A program made the translations under genes and the position numbers. DNA of 13,650 bases, from the IMG/VR virus record IMGVR_UViG_3300029490_000278, positions 1 to 13,650 of that record, one strand, 5' to 3'. This stretch comes from a virus. Lineage: Duplodnaviria; Heunggongvirae; Uroviricota; Caudoviricetes. A model generated the notes under the pieces. It saw nothing but the letters and a program-made list of their open reading frames with translations. It did no database searches and was not told the DNA's origin. Positions 1-10,807 of this stretch are shown one piece after another (position 1 is the stretch's first letter; each line of letters opens with the position of its first letter).

Positions 1-1053
1 TTATTTCCCCACCAGCTCGTTTATCTCTTTCACTGTCTGGTTAAACCGCTCTGACTCAAGCTCAACACCTAAGGCCCGACGCCCCAGCGCCATTGCTGCT
101 TTTATTGTGGAACCGGATCCCATAAAAAAATCAGCAACCAGATCACCAGGTCGACTACTGGCATTGATTATTTGCCTGAGCATATCCGCCGGTTTCTCAC
201 ACGGATGTTTACCCGGGTAGAACTGAACGGGTTTATGCATCCAGACATCGGTATAAGGCACGGAGACTGATACGGAGAAATAGCGCCGGAGAGATTTAAA
301 CTCATCCAGCAATTCAGAATATTTGCGATTCAGTGAATCATAAGACGCCGCCAGCTGGTGGTGTGGTTGTTCCAGTTGTTGTTCCTGAAACTTCTCTGCC
401 GCTATACGGGAAAACAGTGCCTGTAACTTCCGATAGTCAGCCTCATTCGGCAACTGCCACTGACTGGCACCAAACCAGTGGGAAACCATATTTTTCTTAC
501 CTGTGGCTTCGGCAATTTGTTTTGCCGTTATACCCAGTTCGGCACGAGCATCCCTGAAATACGATATCAGCGGTGCCATTATGTGCTGTTTGAGTTCCCT
601 TTCTTTTGCTGCATAGCCGTCACTTTTGCCGCGATATGGCCCCTGGTAATGTTCAGCAAACAGAACGCGCTCTGTGGCAGGAAAATATGCGCGCAGACTT
701 TCTTTATTACACCCATTCCAACGTCCGGACGGCTTCGCCCAGATGATATGGTTAAGCACGTTGAAACGTTCACGCATCATGATCTCAATATCAGATGCCA
801 GGCGATGCCCACAGAACAGGTAAAGGCTTCCGGCAGGTTTTAACACCCGCCAGAACTGGGCCAGACAGTGGTCCAGCCACTTAAGGTAATCTTCGTCCCC
901 TTTCCACTGATTGTCCCAGCCGTTGGGTTTCACCTTGAAGTACGGCGGATCGGTAACAATCAGGTCAATGGAATCATCAGGCAGGGACTGAATAAAATGC
1001 AGGCAATCAGCGTTGATTAAATCAACACTGTTTATTTTTACAGTATTTTTCAT
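1..1053 (-). CDS. DNA methyltransferase, amino-MTase type (N6-adenine or N4-cytosine), beta-class motif order
   Basis: 350-aa ORF. Motif IV DPPY near the N-terminus (LIVTDPPYF) and motif I FxGxG near the C-terminus (DFFMGSGST). ATG at 1051-1053; stop TAA is complement of bases 1-3, so the gene is complete within the window. No clear SD. Confidence 0.85.
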   Translation of the reverse strand: MKNTVKINSVDLINADCLHFIQSLPDDSIDLIVTDPPYFKVKPNGWDNQWKGDEDYLKWLDHCLAQFWRVLKPAGSLYLFCGHRLASDIEIMMRERFNVLNHIIWAKPSGRWNGCNKESLRAYFPATERVLFAEHYQGPYRGKSDGYAAKERELKQHIMAPLISYFRDARAELGITAKQIAEATGKKNMVSHWFGASQWQLPNEADYRKLQALFSRIAAEKFQEQQLEQPHHQLAASYDSLNRKYSELLDEFKSLRRYFSVSVSVPYTDVWMHKPVQFYPGKHPCEKPADMLRQIINASSRPGDLVADFFMGSGSTIKAAMALGRRALGVELESERFNQTVKEINELVGK

Positions 1054-1203
1054 GGATCAGTAAGCGTAACTCTGGTAGGCTCACTCTGCTTTTGCGCTAA
1101 AGCAGTGGGCCGTGGTTCGCTTGTGACCAGTAAGCATGAGCGAATGGCTGGCAGGTGCTACCAACACCCACCAGCCGCCCATTTTCACAGCAGGAAACCG
1201 CCA

Positions 1204-1407
1204 TTACTGGCAGCGTCTGAATTTATTCCCGTACCCGCCGTTATCCTTCGCCAGACCCGCCAGAACTAACTGAGTCAGTATTAACTGGCACCGGGCTTCG
1301 CTTACTCCGGTAGTTCTCGTCATCATGCGTGGCGTTACCCACTTGTCAGCAGGTAAGAAATGAAGGACTGCGGCGGCGGTTTCTGTCATATCTTGCTGTT
1401 TTAGCAT
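1204..1407 (-). CDS. Small helical protein (67 aa), possible winged-helix DNA-binding regulator
   Basis: SD AAGGGA about 8 nt upstream of the ATG at 1407; the in-frame upstream ATG at 1431 has no SD. Sequence resembles small phage regulators, but no diagnostic motif. Confidence 0.45.
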   Translation of the reverse strand: MLKQQDMTETAAAVLHFLPADKWVTPRMMTRTTGVSEARCQLILTQLVLAGLAKDNGGYGNKFRRCQ

Positions 1408-1452
1408 GTCTTTTTCCCTTCTGGTTAACATGACATACCAATAACTCTTGTC

Positions 1453-1479
1453 TAAAAAGCCAGCAAGATAAAAAGCCAG
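1453..1479. repeat. Two 11-bp direct repeats TAAAAAGCCAG (1453-1463 and 1469-1479)
   Basis: Exact repeat read directly from the sequence, 16-bp periodicity, lying between the candidate terminator at 1529-1551 and the start of the small - strand gene. Role unknown. Confidence 0.6.
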
Positions 1480-1528
1480 TATTCACGACCACCAGCGTGT
1501 TTACTGTACTGCACCAGGTTTACAGGTA

Positions 1529-1551
1529 CAAAAAAACCGCTCAGCGGCGGG
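1529..1551 (-). terminator. Candidate intrinsic terminator on the - strand (short GC stem plus 7-U tract)
   Basis: + strand reads caAAAAAAACCGCTCAGCGGCGGG. On the - strand this is a short CCGC/GCGG stem followed by UUUUUUU (1530-1536). The stem is short, so this is weak. Confidence 0.3.
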
Positions 1552-1599
1552 TTTAAGTTGTGTGGCGAAGTAACCACTCTTAACATAATACAATACTTT

Positions 1600-1653
1600 T
1601 TGCGTACGCGTTAATAATTCTATATTATACAAGAAAAACAAGCTGGAAGACAA
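1600..1653. promoter_or_regulatory. AT-rich intergenic region with candidate divergent sigma70 promoters
   Basis: + strand: TTGCGT (1600-1605), 17-nt spacer, TATTAT (1623-1628), upstream of the OLD-like gene. - strand: TTGTCT (complement of 1648-1653), 18-nt spacer, TATAAT (complement of 1624-1629). Pattern match only. Confidence 0.25.
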
Positions 1654-1658
1654 TTAAA

Positions 1659-3437
1659 GTGAGTGAAATCATAAAGTTAAAAGGGCTAATGAATACAAAT
1701 GCTATTGAGCCGTTCATTCGCCATATACGGTTTCCGTATTTTAAAAATCTTGAAGAATATAGCACTATACATTTTCACTATCCTATTACTGCATTAGTTG
1801 GTCAAAATGGAACCAATAAAAGCTCAGTATTACGTGCATTATATGGTTCTCCAAATAATTATTCCTTAGGAAATCTTTGGTTTTCAACTGATCTAGACGA
1901 GATTAAAGATGGTGGTCGTTCTAGATTTATTTATGGATACTATGATTCCGCATCTAAAGATGTTGTTGAAGTAATAAAAACAAGGATTGTAGACAAGGAG
2001 GATCCTGATTTATGGGAAACTTCGAGACCTCTAACTAAAGATGGTATGAAAAAAATACCAACAGATATTATTTCGCCAAATCAGCAAAAATCACGCTGGA
2101 AACAGATAGACAAAATTGTCACATATATTGATTTTAGAGCTTCGATCAGTGCATTCGATAAATTCTTTTATCATTCGGACTTTGATCTTTATCCAAAGAA
2201 AAATCACCTGAGAAAAAGAAGCCATCTTCTTAAAGAGATAATAGATAAAGGCCTAACATCATACAAGCCCTTTAAAGGTAAAAAAGAAAGGTTGTATAAG
2301 AATGAATTACTTTCTCAAGAGAAGGTAGAAATCATCAGCGATATACTTGGTAGACCTTACAAAACAATTAGACTTATTGAGCATGCCTTATTTACAAACA
2401 ATAAGGCTTCAACCGTTATTTTAGAGTCTCATAGTCTCAACTACTCCGAGGCTTTTGCAGGAAGTGGGGAGTTTGCAGTAACTATTCTCGTAAATCAAAT
2501 TGTTAACGCGCCAACAGCATCATTAATTCTTTTAGATGAACCCGAAGTCTCACTTCATCCAGCAGCACAGTTTAAATTGATGTCTTTTCTAAATAAGATT
2601 TGCTTAAAAAACAAACATCAAATTGTTATTTCAACACACTCATCATCTATAGTTAGCCAACTACCTAAGGAAGCCATAAAACTTTTTAATCTTAATTCAA
2701 ACTCAGGGAAAGTTAGTATAGTTGAAAACGTTAGCCCTGAGGAAGCTTTCTTTACGCTTGGAGACCGACTATCAAAAAAAACTATCTTTGTAGAAGATAA
2801 ACTGGCTAAAAAATTCGTTGAGAAGGCTTTAAAATCAGGAGGTCCTGCCCTAGCCAATACATTTGATGTTATATATTGCCCAGCTGGTGCAAGCACATTA
2901 TTAGGTAATATGATTGTCTCATTATTTTTATCAAGAGTTGATAATGCGGTATTTTTATTGGATGGTGATCAGAAGACAAGCCATGATTTCATTACATCAG
3001 CCTTAATACCAAGCAGTGAAGATAATTCTTTAAATGAAAAAATAAAAAATATTCTTGGGTGTGAAATTAAAATACCAACTGATGGGCATGGTGGAACTCC
3101 AAATAAACAGCAGAAGATTCAACTTCAGCGTGATTTCATTGATTTTTCATATAATTATGTAGGGTATTTACCTATCATTAATCCAGAAACTTTTTTGATT
3201 GACAATCTTCCGGCTTTTTACTCCGATATGATTAAAGATTTAAACTTATCAAAACTATCACCAAAATCAATAATTGCAGAAATATGTAAAAGAGACATAG
3301 AAAATAACGTTATAACTTCTGATGATATTTTCGCAACACAAATCAGGATACTAACCCGAATACCTGAGAATCATGTCGCATTTTCTGAAACGAGAGAAAT
3401 GCTGAAATTTTTCCTTGAACATGGTAAGATAAGATAA
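1659..3437 (+). CDS. OLD-family nuclease: N-terminal ABC-type ATPase plus C-terminal TOPRIM domain
   Basis: 592-aa ORF. Walker A GQNGTNKS (res 48-55), signature-like AGSGE, Walker B LILLDEPEVSLHP (D293/E294), H-loop STHS, TOPRIM glutamate in TIFVEDK (E379) and DxD in FLLDGDQ (D434/D436). Start is GTG at 1659; an in-frame ATG at 1689 is the alternative. Visibly AT-rich relative to flanks. Confidence 0.8.
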   Translation: MSEIIKLKGLMNTNAIEPFIRHIRFPYFKNLEEYSTIHFHYPITALVGQNGTNKSSVLRALYGSPNNYSLGNLWFSTDLDEIKDGGRSRFIYGYYDSASKDVVEVIKTRIVDKEDPDLWETSRPLTKDGMKKIPTDIISPNQQKSRWKQIDKIVTYIDFRASISAFDKFFYHSDFDLYPKKNHLRKRSHLLKEIIDKGLTSYKPFKGKKERLYKNELLSQEKVEIISDILGRPYKTIRLIEHALFTNNKASTVILESHSLNYSEAFAGSGEFAVTILVNQIVNAPTASLILLDEPEVSLHPAAQFKLMSFLNKICLKNKHQIVISTHSSSIVSQLPKEAIKLFNLNSNSGKVSIVENVSPEEAFFTLGDRLSKKTIFVEDKLAKKFVEKALKSGGPALANTFDVIYCPAGASTLLGNMIVSLFLSRVDNAVFLLDGDQKTSHDFITSALIPSSEDNSLNEKIKNILGCEIKIPTDGHGGTPNKQQKIQLQRDFIDFSYNYVGYLPIINPETFLIDNLPAFYSDMIKDLNLSKLSPKSIIAEICKRDIENNVITSDDIFATQIRILTRIPENHVAFSETREMLKFFLEHGKIR

Positions 3438-3463
3438 ATTTTAGATTATTATAGAGACAGATC

Positions 3464-4498
3464 ATGAAGAAAAAAATCAAAGTTTTTGACTTCTTTTCAG
3501 GATGCGGGGGAACAAGCAAAGGCCTTAAAGAGGCTGGGTGCGAAATTTTCTTCGGTCTCGATTATGATTATGACTCTGGTCAAACCTTTCAGGCAAATAA
3601 TCCTGATGCTATATTTTTTAATGAGGATATACGCTCCGTTAAGTTAAATGATTTATTTCAGCTTGTAAAAAAAGCGAAGCAAGACTCACATGTTTTGTTT
3701 TGTGGTTGTGCTCCATGTCAACCGTTCTCAAGGCAAAATAAAAATAAAAGCAAAGAAGATCCTCGAAGAGGATTATTAAACGAATTTGGTCGTTTTATCG
3801 AGTACTATTGTCCTGATTATGTACTGATAGAAAATGTTCCAGGATTACAAAAAGTTGATATTAACGATGGACCATTGCATGATTTTATAACTCTTCTGAA
3901 AAAGAAAGATTATAATTTAGCTTATGGTGTGATTCCCGCTTTATGGTACGGAGTGCCTCAAACCAGAGAGCGTTTTGTTCTTATGGCCTCACTTCATTCC
4001 CCAATCCATCTACCAGAGCGCACGCATAATGGCGAAGATATCCCATTTGCGACGGTAAGAGATTGGATCGGAAATATACCACCAATTGAGGCAGGTGAAT
4101 CACATCCTACATTACGAGATCATGTTAGTGCAAAACTCTCTGCTTTAAATCTTAAAAGAATTAAAGCAACGCCAGAGGGTAAAGGTCGAGAGTTTTGGCC
4201 TAAAGAGTTGTTACTTGAATGTCATAAAAACCATACAGGTCACAGCGATGTATATGGCCGATTAGCATGGGATAAACCTGCTAGTGGATTAACTACAAGA
4301 TGCATTAGTTACTCTAACGGAAGATTTGGCCATCCTGAGCAACACCGGGCAATTTCTGTTCGCGAGGCTGCACTGCTACAAACATTTCCATTGGATTATA
4401 TATTCATCGGTTCAATGCTTTCTAAAGCTAAACAAATTGGTAATGCAGTCCCACCTAAAATGGCGGAGTCTATAGGGCATGTTTTTATGAATATTTAG
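3464..4498 (+). CDS. DNA (cytosine-5)-methyltransferase, Dcm-type
   Basis: 344-aa ORF with the full C5-MTase motif set: I FDFFSGCGG, IV GCAPCQPFS (catalytic Cys), VI IENVPGL, VIII QTRERF, X QIGNAVPP. Starts 26 nt after the OLD-like stop on the same strand; AT-rich. Confidence 0.9.
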   Translation: MKKKIKVFDFFSGCGGTSKGLKEAGCEIFFGLDYDYDSGQTFQANNPDAIFFNEDIRSVKLNDLFQLVKKAKQDSHVLFCGCAPCQPFSRQNKNKSKEDPRRGLLNEFGRFIEYYCPDYVLIENVPGLQKVDINDGPLHDFITLLKKKDYNLAYGVIPALWYGVPQTRERFVLMASLHSPIHLPERTHNGEDIPFATVRDWIGNIPPIEAGESHPTLRDHVSAKLSALNLKRIKATPEGKGREFWPKELLLECHKNHTGHSDVYGRLAWDKPASGLTTRCISYSNGRFGHPEQHRAISVREAALLQTFPLDYIFIGSMLSKAKQIGNAVPPKMAESIGHVFMNI

Positions 4499-4880: not shown

Positions 4881-5876
4881 TCAGGCCAGCACGCCTATTG
4901 CCAGCGCACGATCGATAAAACGAAATATCAGCTCCAACTGGGAGCCATACTTCTCTTCAAATGCCACGGTATCCGCATGTAGTTCGTCGTGATGCTTTCT
5001 GCACAAAGGCAACACAAAGAGGTCATGCGCTTTTGTACCCATTCCCCCCTGACCGTGGCCTATCAGGTGGTGGGGATCATCAGCAGGCTTTCCACAACAT
5101 GCACACGGCTGTGTCTTAACCCAGCGCGTGTACTTTTCATTAACCCAGCGGCGACGTTTTGGGCGTAACATAAAAGACTCCGGCGACTTCGGATCCACTT
5201 TCAGCGCCAGCACTTTTTTCGCTTTATCCTGGATGATGCTGGTGGCAGGAACCGAAGGCACAAGGTCACTTTCCCGGGTAACAGACGGCACAACAGGCTT
5301 CGGTAATCTAAGTGCCTTACGGGCTGCACTTTCCGGTAAGGCATCCGCCAGGTCATTACGAATCAGCCACCAGCACAGTTCCGGCATTGTCACAACGTGA
5401 CTGTCATCAAAACCGAGATCCCGACGCACAACAGACAACACCCAGCGGGCACAGTTATCCGTTGCCATTGATTCCAGCCGTTCTGTGAACTGATCGCGCA
5501 GCTGGTTATCGCAGTGCCAGCACAGACGGATTGCGCCCGGAGCGTGTCGCATTGTGGTCATGTTCTCGCTGTGCCAGTCGGAATGAGGCCACTGGCAGCC
5601 TTTTTCACGAAGTAACCAGCTTTCAAGACATTCCACGCCACCAGCACGACGGATCACTGCCTCATTGCGGAACACGCCCCGAACGGCAGGATCATCCGCC
5701 AGCGGTTGTGATGCCGCGGGAACGGCACCACTGGCGAAAGATGAATAACGCTCCGGCTCAGGCTCCAGCAGGACACGCCCCTGCATAAATAGGGGCATCA
5801 GCTCTGAACCTGGTCTGAACAATACGATCCCCATACGCGGGGCAATTTCAGGGGTCAGTAGTGCTCTCACGGTCAC
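4881..5876 (-). CDS. Phage nin-region protein with C-terminal Cys/His (HNH-like or zinc-binding) motif, DUF968-like (tentative)
   Basis: 331-aa ORF. C-terminus carries CACCGKPADDPHHLIGHG...LPLCRKHHDELH. The GTG at 5876 overlaps the upstream TGA stop (GTGA), suggesting translational coupling; exact start is ambiguous. Confidence 0.6.
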   Translation of the reverse strand: MTVRALLTPEIAPRMGIVLFRPGSELMPLFMQGRVLLEPEPERYSSFASGAVPAASQPLADDPAVRGVFRNEAVIRRAGGVECLESWLLREKGCQWPHSDWHSENMTTMRHAPGAIRLCWHCDNQLRDQFTERLESMATDNCARWVLSVVRRDLGFDDSHVVTMPELCWWLIRNDLADALPESAARKALRLPKPVVPSVTRESDLVPSVPATSIIQDKAKKVLALKVDPKSPESFMLRPKRRRWVNEKYTRWVKTQPCACCGKPADDPHHLIGHGQGGMGTKAHDLFVLPLCRKHHDELHADTVAFEEKYGSQLELIFRFIDRALAIGVLA

Positions 5877-8117: not shown

Positions 8118-8677
8118 GCGTTAGTTTCTCCACAGTCACGACACGCCACGGCGCCCGGAGCTGCACACTCGCGGGCGTCATTACTTTCTGAAATGCAAAA
8201 AATTTTGTAGACCAGTGCTGCATGCTCCTGCAGCTTCGAAATTGAGAGGTACAACTCGTCGTTAATTGCTGTCTTCTCATGCGGTTCCACTACACCGTCT
8301 TCAATTGCTGAACGAATCTGTTTTGAATAACTGCCGATCTGTTCAATGACCTCCAGCAGGCGTTGGTTGATATCGGCGTTGTCCACATCCTCGACGTCAG
8401 GAAGAGACACAAAGACGCCATTTGCAGACTGCGCCACAGCATCAGCAATGAAGTGAGTGCCACCAGCACGCTGTAAAACCATTGCCCATCCCAGCGGGAA
8501 AATCTGATCGCCATCTGCACGAAGGCGGTTGAATAAAGCGTTTTCTGTTACATCGAGCCAGTCAGCCGCTTCAGCGTAACCACCCGGCAACGCCGCGATA
8601 GTTTTTCTGACAGCTTTCACGTACCACTCAGGCTGTTTTTCTATTTTCCAGTGATGCTTACCCACGATTAGCCTCAT
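8114..8677 (-). CDS. Early regulatory protein in the cII position (function tentative)
   Basis: 187-aa ORF directly downstream of the cro-like gene, ATG at 8677. Assignment is by synteny with lambdoid early-right operons; no diagnostic motif. Confidence 0.5.
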
Positions 8678-8708
8678 CGTTCTGTGGTTAAAAATTGAAA
8701 GTGTTCTG

Positions 8709-8909
8709 CTAATCTTTCGGATAGATATCCGGTCTTAAGTCAGATTTCGTAATTGCACCTGACGTGCATTGCTCAAGTTTTTTAGCCAGCACAAAACTGG
8801 CTTTTTTATAGCCATTGAAAACCAGCCGTAAGTAGCCAGGTGTTGAGCCAACTTTTCCGGCCAACTCGCCCTGCTGTTCTTTGGTTAAAGAGTCCCAATA
8901 CGCTTTCAT
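8709..8909 (-). CDS. Cro-like small HTH repressor
   Basis: 66 aa from the ATG at 8909, with SD GGAGGT 9 nt upstream. HTH-like sequence (LTKEQQGELAGKVGSTPGYLRLVFNG), divergent from the CI-like gene. The longer listed ORF (to 9212) runs antisense through the repressor gene and is rejected. Confidence 0.7.
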   Translation of the reverse strand: MKAYWDSLTKEQQGELAGKVGSTPGYLRLVFNGYKKASFVLAKKLEQCTSGAITKSDLRPDIYPKD

Positions 8910-8915
8910 ACAATA

Positions 8916-8982
8916 TGTACCTCCGGTGTACATATTACATGATTGAAATGAACCTTCAAGATACTTGTACCTTAACGGTACA
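8916..8982. promoter_or_regulatory. Immunity switch region: divergent promoters plus two TGTAC-N7-GTACA operator palindromes
   Basis: Operators at 8916-8932 (TGTAC ctccggt GTACA) and 8966-8982 (TGTAC cttaacg GTACA). - strand promoter: TTGAAG (complement of 8954-8959), 16-nt spacer, TAATAT (complement of 8932-8937). + strand candidate: TTGTAC (8965-8970), 17-nt spacer, TTTAAT (8988-8993). Confidence 0.55.
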
Positions 8983-8999
8983 AGGGTTTTAATTTCGTT

Positions 9000-9674
9000 A
9001 TGAAAACAATCCATGACATCCGGCGGTCTAACGCCAGAAAACTGAGAGATGGTGTTGGCGGGAATTCTTCCTTTGCCACTATGATTGATCGCGAGCCAAC
9101 CCAGACCAGCAGGTTTATGGGAGATGGTGCTACTAAAAATATCGGTGACAGCATGGCACGACACATCGAAAAATGTTTCGACCTGCCTGTCGGATGGCTC
9201 GATCAAGAACACCAGACAACGAACATCACAAAAAAACCTGATGTTTCAATCACTAATAAACAAATCACATTAGTCCCTGTCATATCATGGGTACAGGCCG
9301 GAGCATGGAAAGAAGTTGGATATTCTGAGGTTGATTTGAGCACAGCAGAAACGTATCCCTGCCCTGTACCCTGTGGGGAAATGACTTATATCTTGCGGGT
9401 GATAGGTGATTCAATGATTGATGAGTACCGCCCGGGAGACATGATTTTTGTCGATCCTGAAGTACCTGCCTGCCACGGTGACGACGTTATTGCATTGATG
9501 CACGATACAGGTGAAACCACCTTCAAAAGGTTGATAGAAGATGGGACACAGCGTTATCTCAAAGCGTTAAACCCAAACTGGCCTGAGCCTTACATTAAGA
9601 TCAACGGTAATTGCTCTATAATTGGTACAGTGATTTTCTCAGGAAAACCAAGAAGATACAAAATCAAAGCCTAA
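9000..9674 (+). CDS. CI-like phage repressor with LexA-type S24 peptidase domain
   Basis: 224-aa ORF with an N-terminal XRE-type HTH and a C-terminal S24 domain (Ser in VIGDSM, Lys in TFKRL). No SD before the ATG at 9000. Confidence 0.85.
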   Translation: MKTIHDIRRSNARKLRDGVGGNSSFATMIDREPTQTSRFMGDGATKNIGDSMARHIEKCFDLPVGWLDQEHQTTNITKKPDVSITNKQITLVPVISWVQAGAWKEVGYSEVDLSTAETYPCPVPCGEMTYILRVIGDSMIDEYRPGDMIFVDPEVPACHGDDVIALMHDTGETTFKRLIEDGTQRYLKALNPNWPEPYIKINGNCSIIGTVIFSGKPRRYKIKA

Positions 9675-9686
9675 TCAATGTTTATG

Positions 9687-9709
9687 AACCTGCTTCGGCA
9701 GGTTTTTTT
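9687..9709 (+). terminator. Rho-independent terminator downstream of the repressor gene
   Basis: 7-bp stem AACCTGC/GCAGGTT with a UUCG tetraloop, followed by a 7-T run (9703-9709), 13 nt after the repressor stop. Confidence 0.8.
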
Positions 9710-9713
9710 ATAC

Positions 9714-9758
9714 TTGACAATGTACCTTTGAGATACATAATGTACCCAAGCGAAACAA
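9714..9758 (+). promoter_or_regulatory. pL-like promoter with embedded operator
   Basis: -35 TTGACA (9714-9719), 16-nt spacer, -10 CATAAT (9736-9741). Operator-like TGTAC-N7-aTACA at 9721-9737 sits between the -35 and -10; a weaker copy (TGTAC at 9742-9746) follows. Confidence 0.55.
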
Positions 9759-9908
9759 CGAACAGGCAGGACGCCCACGAAGTAGCCGCCTGGGGCATAT
9801 GAAGTCCAGGATGATTCGTTAGCAACAAAAAAGCGCCCTACAGGACGCTTAGCTCTTTAACAATCTGGTCCCCATCAACAAGTAACTGATAACTTGAGGA
9901 GATGTGAA

Positions 9909-10115
9909 ATGCACAAAACAGAACCCAAAATCGTCGCGCCTGGCTACACAGATGAGGAAATTTATGAGTGGATGACAAAGAAGCTGGCAGCTATAAACCA
10001 GCTTCGTGAAGTGCTGTCTTATCGACAGGAAACAATAGACTCCTTAAAAAAACTGGATCAGGAAATCACGGTTTTATCACAGGATGTTACTTTAGATATT
10101 GTGCAGACAAATTAG
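9909..10115 (+). CDS. Small hypothetical early protein (68 aa, predicted helical)
   Basis: ATG at 9909 with SD GAGGAG 7 nt upstream; first gene after the pL-like promoter. No recognisable domain. Confidence 0.4.
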   Translation: MHKTEPKIVAPGYTDEEIYEWMTKKLAAINQLREVLSYRQETIDSLKKLDQEITVLSQDVTLDIVQTN

Positions 10116-10521
10116 GATCCCATTCATTTTCGTCAAAATCATCAAAATGATGAATTTGTGATCTCCAGTCTCGATAATCTAAAAATTTCTGGGCGGTTAC
10201 GCTTATTTTATCAAGTGTGAGTTCATCCTGAATTGAAAGAAGAAGTTCATCAAATTTCATCTCATTAATCTGTTTTGGCATCCAGTGATGCTTCATCAGA
10301 ATAAGGTGAACCAGAGCCTTTTTCCCATTCAACTGATTATAGGGAGTGCCGAATTTCTTCCGGTGCTCATGTAAGACAAGGTCCAAAAGAGTAAGTAATG
10401 TTGCCCTTGATTCAACTTTGCTTATTTCGACTGATGACACTACCCCACTGATTTCAATGCCCCGATACTTTCCAACATTTTCACAGTGGGATTTGTACAG
10501 CGTATAGATATTACCGGACAT
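10087..10521 (-). CDS. AT-rich hypothetical protein (144 aa) on the opposite strand of the early-left operon; candidate moron
   Basis: ATG at 10521 with SD AAGGAA about 6 nt upstream. Visibly lower GC than its neighbours. 3' end overlaps the convergent 9909-10115 gene by 29 nt. No motif recognised. Confidence 0.5.
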   Translation of the reverse strand: MSGNIYTLYKSHCENVGKYRGIEISGVVSSVEISKVESRATLLTLLDLVLHEHRKKFGTPYNQLNGKKALVHLILMKHHWMPKQINEMKFDELLLSIQDELTLDKISVTAQKFLDYRDWRSQIHHFDDFDENEWDPNLSAQYLK

Positions 10522-10807
10522 TTCTTTTCCTTTTGCGTTGTTGGGGATAACCAGATTAACCGAATCCTTGTTGTTGGGGAATAACTAGGTCCACCTCGCC
10601 TGATGTGGCTAAAAGCAGGCACATAACAGCTAAGTATTTTCAACCAGAGAGAATCCTTAGCGTTGTGGTGAATGCGGCTCAGCGCACGCGGGTTAAGGTT
10701 GAGGCTGACAGTCGACCTTCTGTGGATACCCACCCGCCTGGTGTGCAACCTTCGCCAGGCACCGGGAGGCACCCGGCACCACAACTTTATGCTGTGTGTA
10801 GTCTTGG

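Follow-up and report, generated by a model that had tools for sequence, protein, structure and literature searches.

The DNA analyzed here, called the window, is a stretch of 13,650 bp that contains the control region for repressor and Cro from an E. coli prophage of the e14/SfV type. A cro-like gene and a repressor gene are transcribed divergently from a 90-bp intergenic region, and a CII-like gene is next after cro. The genes, promoters, terminator and candidate operators are listed by position; the operators carry no strand.

8709..8909, minus strand: cro-like gene (ymfT/croE homologue), 66 aa; Pfam YdaS_toxin/HTH_3, phrog_35 transcriptional repressor, ymfT according to PGAP
8916..8932: OR1, strong operator TGTACCTCCGGTGTACA; exact TGTAC-N7-GTACA match, PWM 25.0
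8932..8959, minus strand: pR, predicted promoter toward cro; -35 TTGAAG (8959-8954), 16-nt spacer, -10 TAATAT (8937-8932)
8949..8965: OR2, weak operator TGAACCTTCAAGATACT; weight matrix 10.7-10.8 and positional conservation
8965..8993, plus strand: pRM; -35 TTGTAC (8965-8970), 17-nt spacer, -10 TTTAAT (8988-8993), transcription start site (TSS) at the A of the ATG (9000)
8966..8982: OR3, strong operator TGTACCTTAACGGTACA; exact TGTAC-N7-GTACA match, PWM 24.3
9000..9674, plus strand: repressor gene (ymfK/cohE homologue), 224 aa; Peptidase_S24 E=1.5e-26, phrog_4, 'ymfK: LexA family protein' according to PGAP
9686..9712, plus strand: intrinsic terminator of the repressor transcript; hairpin 9686-9705 and T-run, from the terminator scan
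9714..9741, plus strand: pL; TTGACA (9714-9719), 16-nt spacer, CATAAT (9736-9741), 11/12 consensus positions
9721..9737: OL1, strong operator TGTACCTTTGAGATACA; one mismatch, PWM 26.4-26.5
9741..9757: OL2, weak operator TGTACCCAAGCGAAACA; PWM 10.6-10.7, above all window background

The N-terminal domain of the repressor is homologous to phage repressors, the Peptidase_S24 domain comprises residues 93-212, and the translation shows QAG, GDSM and FKRL motifs. The protein is predicted to combine a DNA-binding domain at its N-terminus with a C-terminal S24 autopeptidase and to cleave itself. A PDB sequence search retrieved only a weak relative of the repressor (5d50, 'Repressor', E=6e-4), and a single-sequence AlphaFold2 model was unusable for locating the helix-turn-helix (pLDDT 31). 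The S24 repressor at 9000-9674, the YdaS/HTH Cro-like protein at 8909-8709 and the CII-like gene bear out the preliminary description, which had read this part of the window as an immunity region.

Only three matches with at most one mismatch to TGTAC-N7-GTACA are present on both strands of the 13,650 bp (0.22 expected), and none of 200 dinucleotide shuffles reached three. The motif scan recovered the exact 17-bp palindromes that had been reported at 8916-8932 and 8966-8982, as well as the site at 9721-9737, which has one mismatch and lies between the -35 and -10 elements of the 11/12-consensus promoter following the terminator. Two weaker sites that the preliminary description had missed, 8949-8965 and 9741-9757, were surfaced by the weight matrix. 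None of the window's 13,438 background positions scores as high as OR2 (maximum 6.8); in the 39.8-kb SfIV genome one background site scores equal to OR2. The two strong OR sites are thus 50 bp apart with the weak site between them, and OL pairs a strong site with a weak one. The 90-bp intergenic region contains no further repeated motif. A palindrome TTGAA-N7-TTCAA at 8943-8959 was dropped as a chance occurrence; it is not kept in Hafnia.

All five sites overlap promoter elements. OR1 extends over the 3' end of the pR -10 and over the start predicted for pR (~8925), and its spacer contains the Shine-Dalgarno (SD) sequence of cro, GGAGG. OR2 covers the pR -35 and is centred at -43 relative to the repressor TSS, and OR3, centred at -26, covers the pRM -35 and spacer. 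Related operators are also found at the leftward early promoter: OL1 sits between the -35 and -10 of pL, and OL2 covers the predicted pL start, 20 bp from OL1. With 8 of 12 consensus positions pR is below the threshold of the consensus scanner; its -10 columns have a mean information content (IC) of 1.67 bits and the CAAG of its -35 is conserved in the alignment described below. An alternative pR on the minus strand, TTGTAC-14-TATCTT, was rejected because its spacer of 14 nt is too short. pL is conserved in 22 loci, and the hairpin and T-run of the repressor terminator are conserved in related loci.

Downstream of pL, a hairpin at 9789-9810 in the leader is conserved and co-varying, and an rrn-type boxA is found at 9852-9863; boxA is present in some family members. 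Rfam searches with gathering thresholds returned nothing for the whole window, and in E-value mode gave only chance-level matches for 9700-9920. It is conceivable, if improbable, that hairpin and boxA serve antitermination in these N-less lambdoid phages.

Phylogenetic footprinting was carried out with 24 distinct diverged OR regions from enterics, Pseudomonas and Vibrio; positional counts refer to 25 loci. The ungapped stack contains 19 sequences with a mean pairwise identity of 0.72 (minimum 0.49). Spacers and flanks have drifted in the diverged relatives, but the half-sites, with the consensus TGTACC-N5-GGTACA, have kept their positions. Half-sites in the stack carry 1.8-1.9 bits per column, compared to 0.4-0.6 bits for the OR3 spacer, the stretch from OR3 to the -10 and the 6 nt before the ATG; for OR3 the values are 1.91 bits in the half-sites versus 0.56 in the spacer. 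OR3 is found at ATG-34/-35 in all 25 loci and OR1 at ATG-84/-85 in 24 of them; 19 of the 25 have an OR2 above threshold, at ATG-50 to -52. In 21 loci OL1 lies 45-77 nt past the stop codon of the repressor gene; one further locus (L030) has it at +140. OR1, OR3 and OL1 hold fixed positions in Escherichia, Hafnia, Atlantibacter, Pantoea, Klebsiella, Proteus and Rosenbergiella; the OR sites do so in Pseudomonas as well, and OR3 in Vibrio.

Palindromes of this kind could also be selected as nucleic-acid hairpins, either as a terminator or as RNA structure, and the terminator scan does list 8964-8984 on the plus strand, with a stem CTTGTACC/GGTACAAG followed by GGTTTTAATT. However, the sequence of the arms is invariant over the 24 loci without co-variation, which argues against selection for pairing only, since pairing would permit compensatory changes. 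The T-run past 8984 is not conserved (locus L014 has GGTACACAATGTCTAATT), and the half-sites recur between the -35 and -10 of pL, where a terminator makes no sense. The terminator-like call was rejected on these grounds, and we regard a hairpin function in place of protein binding as extremely unlikely.

The interpretation of the sites as operators is strongly supported by the footprinting over 24 distinct loci and by co-variation with the recognition helix of the repressor. The recognition-helix motif R-E/S-x-T-Q-x-S-R is invariant among the repressors of the TGTAC group; H-19B, RSK1 and Chronis have a different recognition helix and intergenic regions without the TGTAC motif. On these comparisons the repressor and Cro probably recognize the TGTAC-type sites; any assignment of protein and affinity to a single site would be a proposal. 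A search of the literature found no footprint, EMSA, ChIP or SELEX of YmfK/CohE or CroE on TGTAC sites. The Cro homologue is found in all related loci and is co-inherited with the repressor, so sequence comparison cannot tell which of the two imposes the conservation of the operators. Because the CII-like gene is co-inherited as well in the enteric loci, the main reader of the sites might be Cro or a different regulator, for example the CII-like YmfL, with the S24 repressor acting elsewhere. Pseudomonas and Vibrio keep the sites together with repressor and Cro homologues, but the genes after cro differ. OL1 is moreover located in the core of pL, which must be off in a lysogen without Cro synthesis. 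Differential RNA-seq (dRNA-seq) of a K-12 lysogen lists no TSS at the predicted pR or pL (PMC4681348) while ymfK is expressed; for pR this is as expected if the promoter is repressed. Together with the lack of another repeated motif in the intergenic region for a repressor acting elsewhere, this makes it highly unlikely that the repressor is not a main reader of the sites.

For the two weak sites the situation is less clear. Since OR2 overlaps the conserved pR -35 and OL2 the pL start, part of their conservation could stem from the promoters. The right halves of both are poorly conserved, the SfIV genome has its equal-scoring site elsewhere, and OR2 abuts OR3 with an unusual centre-to-centre spacing of 17 bp. 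It is therefore possible, though rather unlikely, that only OR1, OR3 and OL1 are functional and that OR2 and OL2 are by-products of the promoters, without lambda-like cooperativity or self-activation. Against this, the conserved part of OR2, TG(A/T)ACC, is outside the -35 hexamer and matches an operator half-site; in Proteus and Pseudomonas this part is a perfect TGTACC. Of the 22 loci with OL1, 19 retain the left half of OL2, TGTACC, and in 13 the complete site exceeds the threshold at OL1+20. The distances of 33 bp between OR1 and OR2 and of 20 bp between OL1 and OL2 are near whole helical turns, and the OR2 centre at -43 corresponds to -42 for lambda OR2. We infer from the two spacings that cooperative binding at OR1-OR2 and OL1-OL2 may occur; self-activation from OR2 and self-repression from OR3 are likewise inferred.

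The repressor was expected to be translated from a leaderless mRNA, based on an ATG without SD and a TTGTAC-17-TTTAAT promoter match. Both features are present. No possible start codon precedes the ATG at 9000 in the repressor ORF, and anti-SD pairing in the 20 nt upstream is weak (-4.3 kcal/mol, compared to -10.8 kcal/mol for cro); across the loci the means are -2.3 and -11.3 kcal/mol for repressor and cro, respectively. The repressor start codon is ATG in all 25 loci and no SD is conserved upstream. The last base of the pRM -10 is 7 nt upstream of the A of the ATG. In the conserved T-N-TAAT box of this -10 all 19 sequences have A-9, A-8 and T-7, and 18 of the 19 are without the usual A at -11. 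The K-12 sequence under the mapped ymfK start is identical to the window, and there dRNA-seq places the TSS at 1202156/7 with the gene start at 1202156 and a leader of 0 (PMC4681348). Leaderlessness has thus already been shown, with the start on the ATG. The mRNAs of ymfK, racR and dicA are three of only five leaderless mRNAs found in K-12 (PMC4681348).

The presence of a CII-like activator gene makes an establishment promoter through cro antisense plausible during infection, and the repressor could then be made mainly from a longer, leadered transcript of the pRE type, the start at the ATG being minor or a processing product. This is very unlikely, given that the ymfK start was classified as a class I primary TSS by differential (TEX) RNA-seq and no further start is listed on the same strand between it and 1203043-1203046 (PMC4681348). 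Besides the missing SD, the operator-to-ATG distance of 34-35 nt in 25 of 25 loci speaks against a leader, as such constancy would not be expected unless promoter and start codon were coupled.

A -10 without A(-11) and a strong operator at -26, yet a strong start in the lysogen, suggest that the repressor might be an obligate activator of its own pRM. The weak site at -43, or even the one at -26, might then serve for activation, in place of a circuit dominated by self-repression. Combined with a pL-leader hairpin/boxA element as an N-independent antitermination module, such a non-lambda logic appears improbable to us.

We consider it very probable that the region is a bistable immunity switch of lambda type, belonging to the e14/SfV family of prophages. 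In this switch the YmfK/CohE-type repressor and the YmfT/CroE-type Cro would recognize 17-bp operators of the type TGTACC-N5-GGTACA. Occupation of OR1 would cover the -10 end, start site and ribosome-binding site of the cro promoter pR, and the weak OR2, at the position held by lambda OR2, would cover the pR -35. OR3 would cover -35 and spacer of pRM, from which the repressor itself is transcribed, and OL1 and the weak OL2 the core and start site of the strong pL. In the lysogen the repressor would shut pR and pL, and its own mRNA would start exactly at the AUG and end at the terminator. SOS-driven self-cleavage of the repressor would release both early operons. The YmfT iModulon groups genes of the pL operon (ymfJ, ymfH, xisE, intE) and of the pR operon with sulA and recN (PMC12132413), showing that both early operons of e14 are co-induced with SOS genes.

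The immunity region is 100% identical to the ymfK (cohE)/ymfT (croE) region of e14 in K-12 from the cro start through OR and at OL1; the terminator, pL and some 200 nt at the start of the repressor gene are identical as well, and the single SNP is in OL2. Beyond about 9795-9830 the window resembles phage SfIV and not e14: the first pL gene differs, and the window has the boxA element. The prophage is more complete than e14, SfIV-like, with a Q gene and an integrase. The immunity regions of SfV, SfIV, cdtI, Ayreon and Stx2c-converting phages are 96-99% identical to the window, with about 98% for SfV and SfIV, and among them the spacer bases of OR1, OR3, OL1 and OL2 vary while the half-sites are constant. 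The DNA-binding domain of the repressor is 98.8-100% identical to those of SfIV, SfV, Ayreon, 2H10 and Stx2c phages. With near-identical repressor, Cro and operators the window fits the e14/SfV homoimmune set, for which cross-immunity is predicted from these comparisons. It had been proposed that the operators define the immunity specificity of this prophage. Immunity region and operators are supported, but the half-site motif is common to a wide family, so that the motif alone does not define a unique specificity.

The immunity region is carried by 1324 of 5426 complete E. coli genomes. This very common immunity type includes e14 of K-12, Shigella serotype-converting phages and Stx2c and CDT toxin phages, so that superinfection immunity and SOS induction of many medically relevant prophages depend on its operators. 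In the SfV record U82619 a "putative operator region" maps to 8915-8983 of the window and a terminator is annotated after cI; the record of phage Ayreon has pL annotated as 'promoter' and also a terminator. As operators and leaderless repressor mRNA have already been published or annotated, the finding is correct rather than new, and it opens no new question for specialists. What is gained is a sequence-level model of five operators with the consensus TGTACC-N5-GGTACA, and a link between the window and existing K-12 data.

The region had been described as mirroring lambda, and this is true for the general layout and the geometry of pRM. As in lambda, cI and cro are divergent, the operators lie over pR, pRM and pL, the repressor is of the self-cleaving S24 type, and pL follows the cI transcription unit in the same direction. 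Both pRM promoters have a -10 hexamer followed by 6 nt and the ATG, with the TSS on the A. The match is not complete, since site spacing, OR3 strength and the number of OL sites differ. The operator sequences are unrelated to those of lambda, and their centres are at -26/-43/-76 compared to -19/-42/-66 in lambda. Unlike in lambda, OR2 abuts OR3 and OR1 is 33 bp away from OR2. Where lambda has three operator repeats over pR/pRM, the window has two certain strong sites and a candidate weak site, 8949-8965, supported by weight matrix and position. OR3 scores like OR1 (24.3 vs. 25.0), whereas in lambda it is the weakest repressor site, and OL has two sites instead of three. Cro is of the YdaS type, and rexAB is missing between cI and pL. 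The N/nut antitermination of a lambda-type early region was not found: no N homologue has been reported for SfIV/SfV (PMC3851460), and the first pL ORF (9909-10115) belongs to phrog_1744, a family of unknown function, and is not arginine-rich. The likeness to lambda therefore holds for the switch and not for the early region as a whole.

A further known system with similar organization is the PaaR2/YdaS/YdaT region of CP-933P from E. coli O157:H7, whose repressor mRNA is leaderless according to 5' RACE (PMC8630535). In both systems the repressor gene diverges from a gene for a YdaS-type Cro, behind which a CII-like gene lies, and operators are found at OR and at a pL-like promoter; in CP-933P these operators are bound by both proteins (PMC8630535). 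They differ in the operator, which in CP-933P has the consensus GTTTAGTAA in four inverted repeats, and in the repressor, since PaaR2 is without an S24 domain and heads a toxin-antitoxin operon (PMC8630535). RacR of Rac and DicA of Qin in K-12 are likewise encoded by leaderless mRNAs, as ymfK is, but their repressors and operators are unrelated.

The genes around the putative operators fit an immunity region. In the following list, OR1 to OR3 lie in the cro-repressor intergenic region and OL1 and OL2 lie at pL; pR and pRM are the promoters of the cro-like gene (ymfT/croE type) and of the repressor gene (ymfK/cohE type), respectively.

8677-8114, minus strand: CII-like gene, encoding a CII-like protein
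8909-8709, minus strand: Cro-like gene, 66 aa, YdaS/HTH-type
8916-8932: OR1, TGTACCTCCGGTGTACA, matching TGTAC-N7-GTACA
8932-8959, minus strand: predicted pR, TTGAAG, 16 nt, TAATAT; start predicted near 8925
8949-8965: OR2, weak candidate, TGAACCTTCAAGATACT, matrix score 10.6-10.8
8966-8982: OR3, TGTACCTTAACGGTACA, matching TGTAC-N7-GTACA
TTGTAC (8965-8970), 17 nt, TTTAAT (8988-8993), plus strand: pRM, the hexamer ending 7 nt before the A of the ATG
9000-9674, plus strand: repressor gene, 224 aa, C-terminal Peptidase_S24 domain (E=1.5e-26)
9686-9705: hairpin and T-run, terminator 3' of the repressor gene
9714-9741: pL, TTGACA-16-CATAAT, 11/12 consensus positions, directly after the terminator
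9721-9737: OL1, TGTACCTTTGAGATACA, matching TGTAC-N7-GTACA with at most one mismatch
9741-9757: OL2, weak candidate, TGTACCCAAGCGAAACA, matrix score 10.6-10.8

The repressor translation carries QAG, GDSM and FKRL motifs. The sites reported in the preliminary description at 8916-8932, 8966-8982 and 9721-9737 are all present. A pattern search of the whole 13,650-bp window for TGTAC-N7-GTACA with at most one mismatch gave these three matches only, where 0.22 are expected by chance, and none of 200 shuffles gave three. OR3 is a perfect palindrome with a weight-matrix score as high as that of OR1.

Across 8600-10200 the window shares 98.7% identity with Shigella phage SfIV, and the left part of this stretch shows 96-99% identity to SfV, cdtI, Ayreon, 2H10, PhiR29/49 and Stx2c-converting phages. 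It was found in 1324 of 5426 complete E. coli genomes, with its genes named ymfK and ymfT by PGAP; in the cryptic prophage e14 of K-12, ymfK (cohE) is the repressor gene and ymfT (croE) the cro gene. Direct alignment with MG1655 showed 100% identity from the cro start through the entire intergenic region and ~200 nt into the repressor gene, likewise for the terminator, pL and OL1; divergence from e14 starts only at ~9795-9830. Judged by sequence, the region belongs to the e14/SfV immunity group, and the immunity module (cro to OL2) is swapped as one unit. The SfV record already annotates a "putative operator region" (window 8915-8983) and, behind cI, a terminator; the Ayreon record annotates the post-terminator promoter.

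Homologues were identified by tblastn using the first 81 residues of the repressor, yielding Hafnia phage yong2 (74%), Pseudomonas phages (55-59%), a Vibrio phage (55%) and, at about 41%, the remoter H-19B, Ralstonia RSK1 and Klebsiella Chronis. A further 20 loci came from a scan restricted to a single genome for each bacterial species; they belong to Atlantibacter, Leclercia, Pantoea, Enterobacter, Pseudocitrobacter, Klebsiella, Trabulsiella, Kluyvera, Limnobaculum, Entomohabitans, Proteus, Rosenbergiella and Pseudomonas. A strong site was present 34-35 nt 5' of the repressor ATG (OR3 position) in 25/25 loci and 84-85 nt 5' of it (OR1 position) in 24/25, the Vibrio copy being degenerate. At the OL1 position, a strong site followed the repressor stop codon by 45-77 nt in 21 loci and by 140 nt in one Pseudomonas locus. 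Information content was taken from 19 distinct sequences stacked without gaps, whose pairwise identity averages 0.72 and is 0.49 at the lowest: half-sites carried 1.8-1.9 bits per column, the OR3 spacer 0.56, the stretch from OR3 to the -10 box 0.57 and the 6 nt directly 5' of the ATG 0.40. The sixth arm position was conserved though it lies outside the search pattern, so that the consensus becomes TGTACC-N5-GGTACA. The arms are invariant across loci, without co-variation, which points to recognition by a protein rather than to a hairpin.

The TGTAC-group repressors share a segment, R-E/S-x-T-Q-x-S-R, which we infer to be the recognition helix. The repressors of H-19B, RSK1 and Chronis differ in this presumed helix, and TGTAC sites were absent from their intergenic regions, which contain other repeats. 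Conservation supports the proposed reading of the sites as operators. The further proposal that they define the immunity specificity of this prophage did not stand for the half-site alone: since the motif is common to relatives as remote as Pseudomonas and Vibrio phages, it does not define a unique specificity.

As had been described for the site at 9721-9737, OL1 occupies the spacer between -35 and -10 of pL; OL2 overlaps the predicted pL start near 9748. The pR reading rests on the conserved columns CAAG (8956-8959) and ATATTA (8932-8937); this promoter has only 8/12 consensus positions and is absent from the promoter scanner's list. Since GGAGG forms the OR1 spacer and pR is predicted to start at ~8925, OR1 would cover the -10 end, the start site and the cro Shine-Dalgarno sequence. 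OR2 and OL2 were scored with a weight matrix that was derived from 56 different strong sites and symmetrised, and both exceed the background maximum of 6.8 (13,438 window positions). An above-threshold site lies 50-52 nt 5' of the ATG (OR2 position) in 19/25 loci and 20 bp past OL1 (OL2 position) in 13/22, the left half being TGTACC in 19/22. Because one unrelated position in the 39.8-kb SfIV genome scores equally, OR2 and OL2 are probable, not certain, sites. Centre-to-centre distances are 33 bp for OR1-OR2 and 20 bp for OL1-OL2, each near whole helical turns, and 17 bp for OR2-OR3. A perfect palindrome, TTGAA-N7-TTCAA (8943-8959), overlaps OR2 and the pR -35 box; it is not kept in Hafnia and therefore probably incidental. 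An extra operator-like site in SfIV (22905-22921, TGTGCGGCATAGATACA, score 10.8), within the gtrA-like flippase gene of the serotype-conversion operon, is probably due to chance.

The repressor mRNA had been predicted to be leaderless, from an ATG at 9000 without Shine-Dalgarno sequence and a TTGTAC-17-TTTAAT promoter placing the start at or near it. Both promoter elements were found. No other start codon of the ORF precedes this ATG, the N-terminus MKT... is kept in all homologues, and all 25 repressor loci start with ATG. Mean upstream anti-SD pairing is -2.3 kcal/mol, versus -11.3 for cro. The operator-to-ATG distance stays at 34-35 nt even where the repressor DNA-binding domains are only 55-59% identical to the window's, a constancy that only a coupling of the promoter to the start codon would lead one to expect. 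Primary 5' ends of MG1655 were determined by differential RNA-seq, giving only five leaderless mRNAs, ymfK of e14 among them (Romero et al., 2014; PMC4681348). Table S3 of that study lists TSS RVS_(I)-1202156 with gene start 1202156 and leader 0, and its TSS list gives the ymfK start as 1202157, i.e. 0-1 nt. Since the window is identical to MG1655 there, the leaderless prediction is confirmed and already in the literature.

Neither the predicted pR nor the predicted pL has a start in the same list, consistent with repression of both in the lysogen. In the YmfT iModulon (PMC12132413), sulA and recN are grouped with genes from the two early operons, which fits SOS-linked derepression. The searchable literature yielded no footprint, gel-shift, ChIP or SELEX result on binding of these proteins to the sites, and a 2020 preprint on e14 ymfM still gives control by a CI-like repressor as likely only. 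Taken together, the preliminary observation is confirmed and its interpretation supported; it was already known in essentials, as the literature contains the leaderless transcript and the operator region has been annotated.

Downstream of OL2, mosaic boundaries were observed at ~9757, where similarity to the cdtI, Ayreon and Stx2c phages ends, and at ~9820, where that to SfV ends. The pL leader contains a conserved ~70-nt element (window 9758-9815) in about 11 enteric loci, with a 5-bp stem (9789-9793 with 9806-9810) around a conserved 12-nt loop, GGCRTATGAAKR, and compensatory changes in 3/5 pairs (CCTGG/CCAGG, CCCGG/CCGGG, CCGGT/ACCGG, CCCCA/TGGGG); no matching family was found in Rfam. An rrn-type boxA, GCTCTTTAACAA, lies within 9852-9868, some 105 nt past the predicted pL start, and is identical at 12/13 positions to the E. 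coli rrn boxA, TGCTCTTTAACAA. It recurs at 5253 of locus L003, 1961 of L025 and 2423 of the Pseudomonas locus L030, and a Pseudomonas sp. prophage carries the identical 17-mer, GCTCTTTAACAATCTGG, directly behind its OL. The presence of boxA, with an N gene unreported (PMC3851460), suggests Nus-factor/boxA antitermination of the left operon. An unannotated 68-aa ORF at 9909-10115 (+), with SD GAGGAG and matching phrog_1744 (E=6e-35), is probably the first pL-operon gene of this prophage; it is also unannotated in the SfIV record. A good minus-strand intrinsic terminator (9831-9850, AAGCGTCCTGTAGGGCGCTT and T-run) closes a leftward gene pair opposing pL, 10087-10521 (-) and 10440-10784 (-); these genes (phrog_5286, no assigned function) look like morons inserted against the early left operon. 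On the far side of the Q antiterminator gene (4878-4522, -), positions 1-4498 hold defence-like cargo: a 592-aa AAA ATPase (PADLOC HEC-04/ATPase-Toprim/GajA-, PtuA- and Old-like), a C-5 cytosine methyltransferase (3464-4498) and an N6/N4 methyltransferase (1-1053, -).

The region would work like lambda OR/OL with its leaderless pRM transcript, as had been proposed. The lambda sequence was checked and shows the same -10/N6/ATG arrangement (TAGATT, TAACGT, ATG) as pRM here. Relative to the repressor start, the centres of OR3, OR2 and OR1 lie at -19, -42 and -66 in lambda versus -26, -43 and -76 here. The likeness does not extend to operator sequence, site spacing, apparent OR3 strength, number of OL sites or Cro family, and unlike in lambda, no N gene is reported (PMC3851460). 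The -10 box of the repressor promoter reads T-N-T-A-A-T, with A at -11 in only 1/19 sequences; together with the strong OR3 this does not fit the lambda model neatly, and the promoter may depend on an activator or the switch may differ in logic in some other way. Among systems dissected by experiment, the closest analogue is PaaR2/YdaS/YdaT of CP-933P, which also combines a Cro of the YdaS type with a CII-like gene and a leaderless repressor; its repeats differ from the TGTAC operators found here (PMC8630535).
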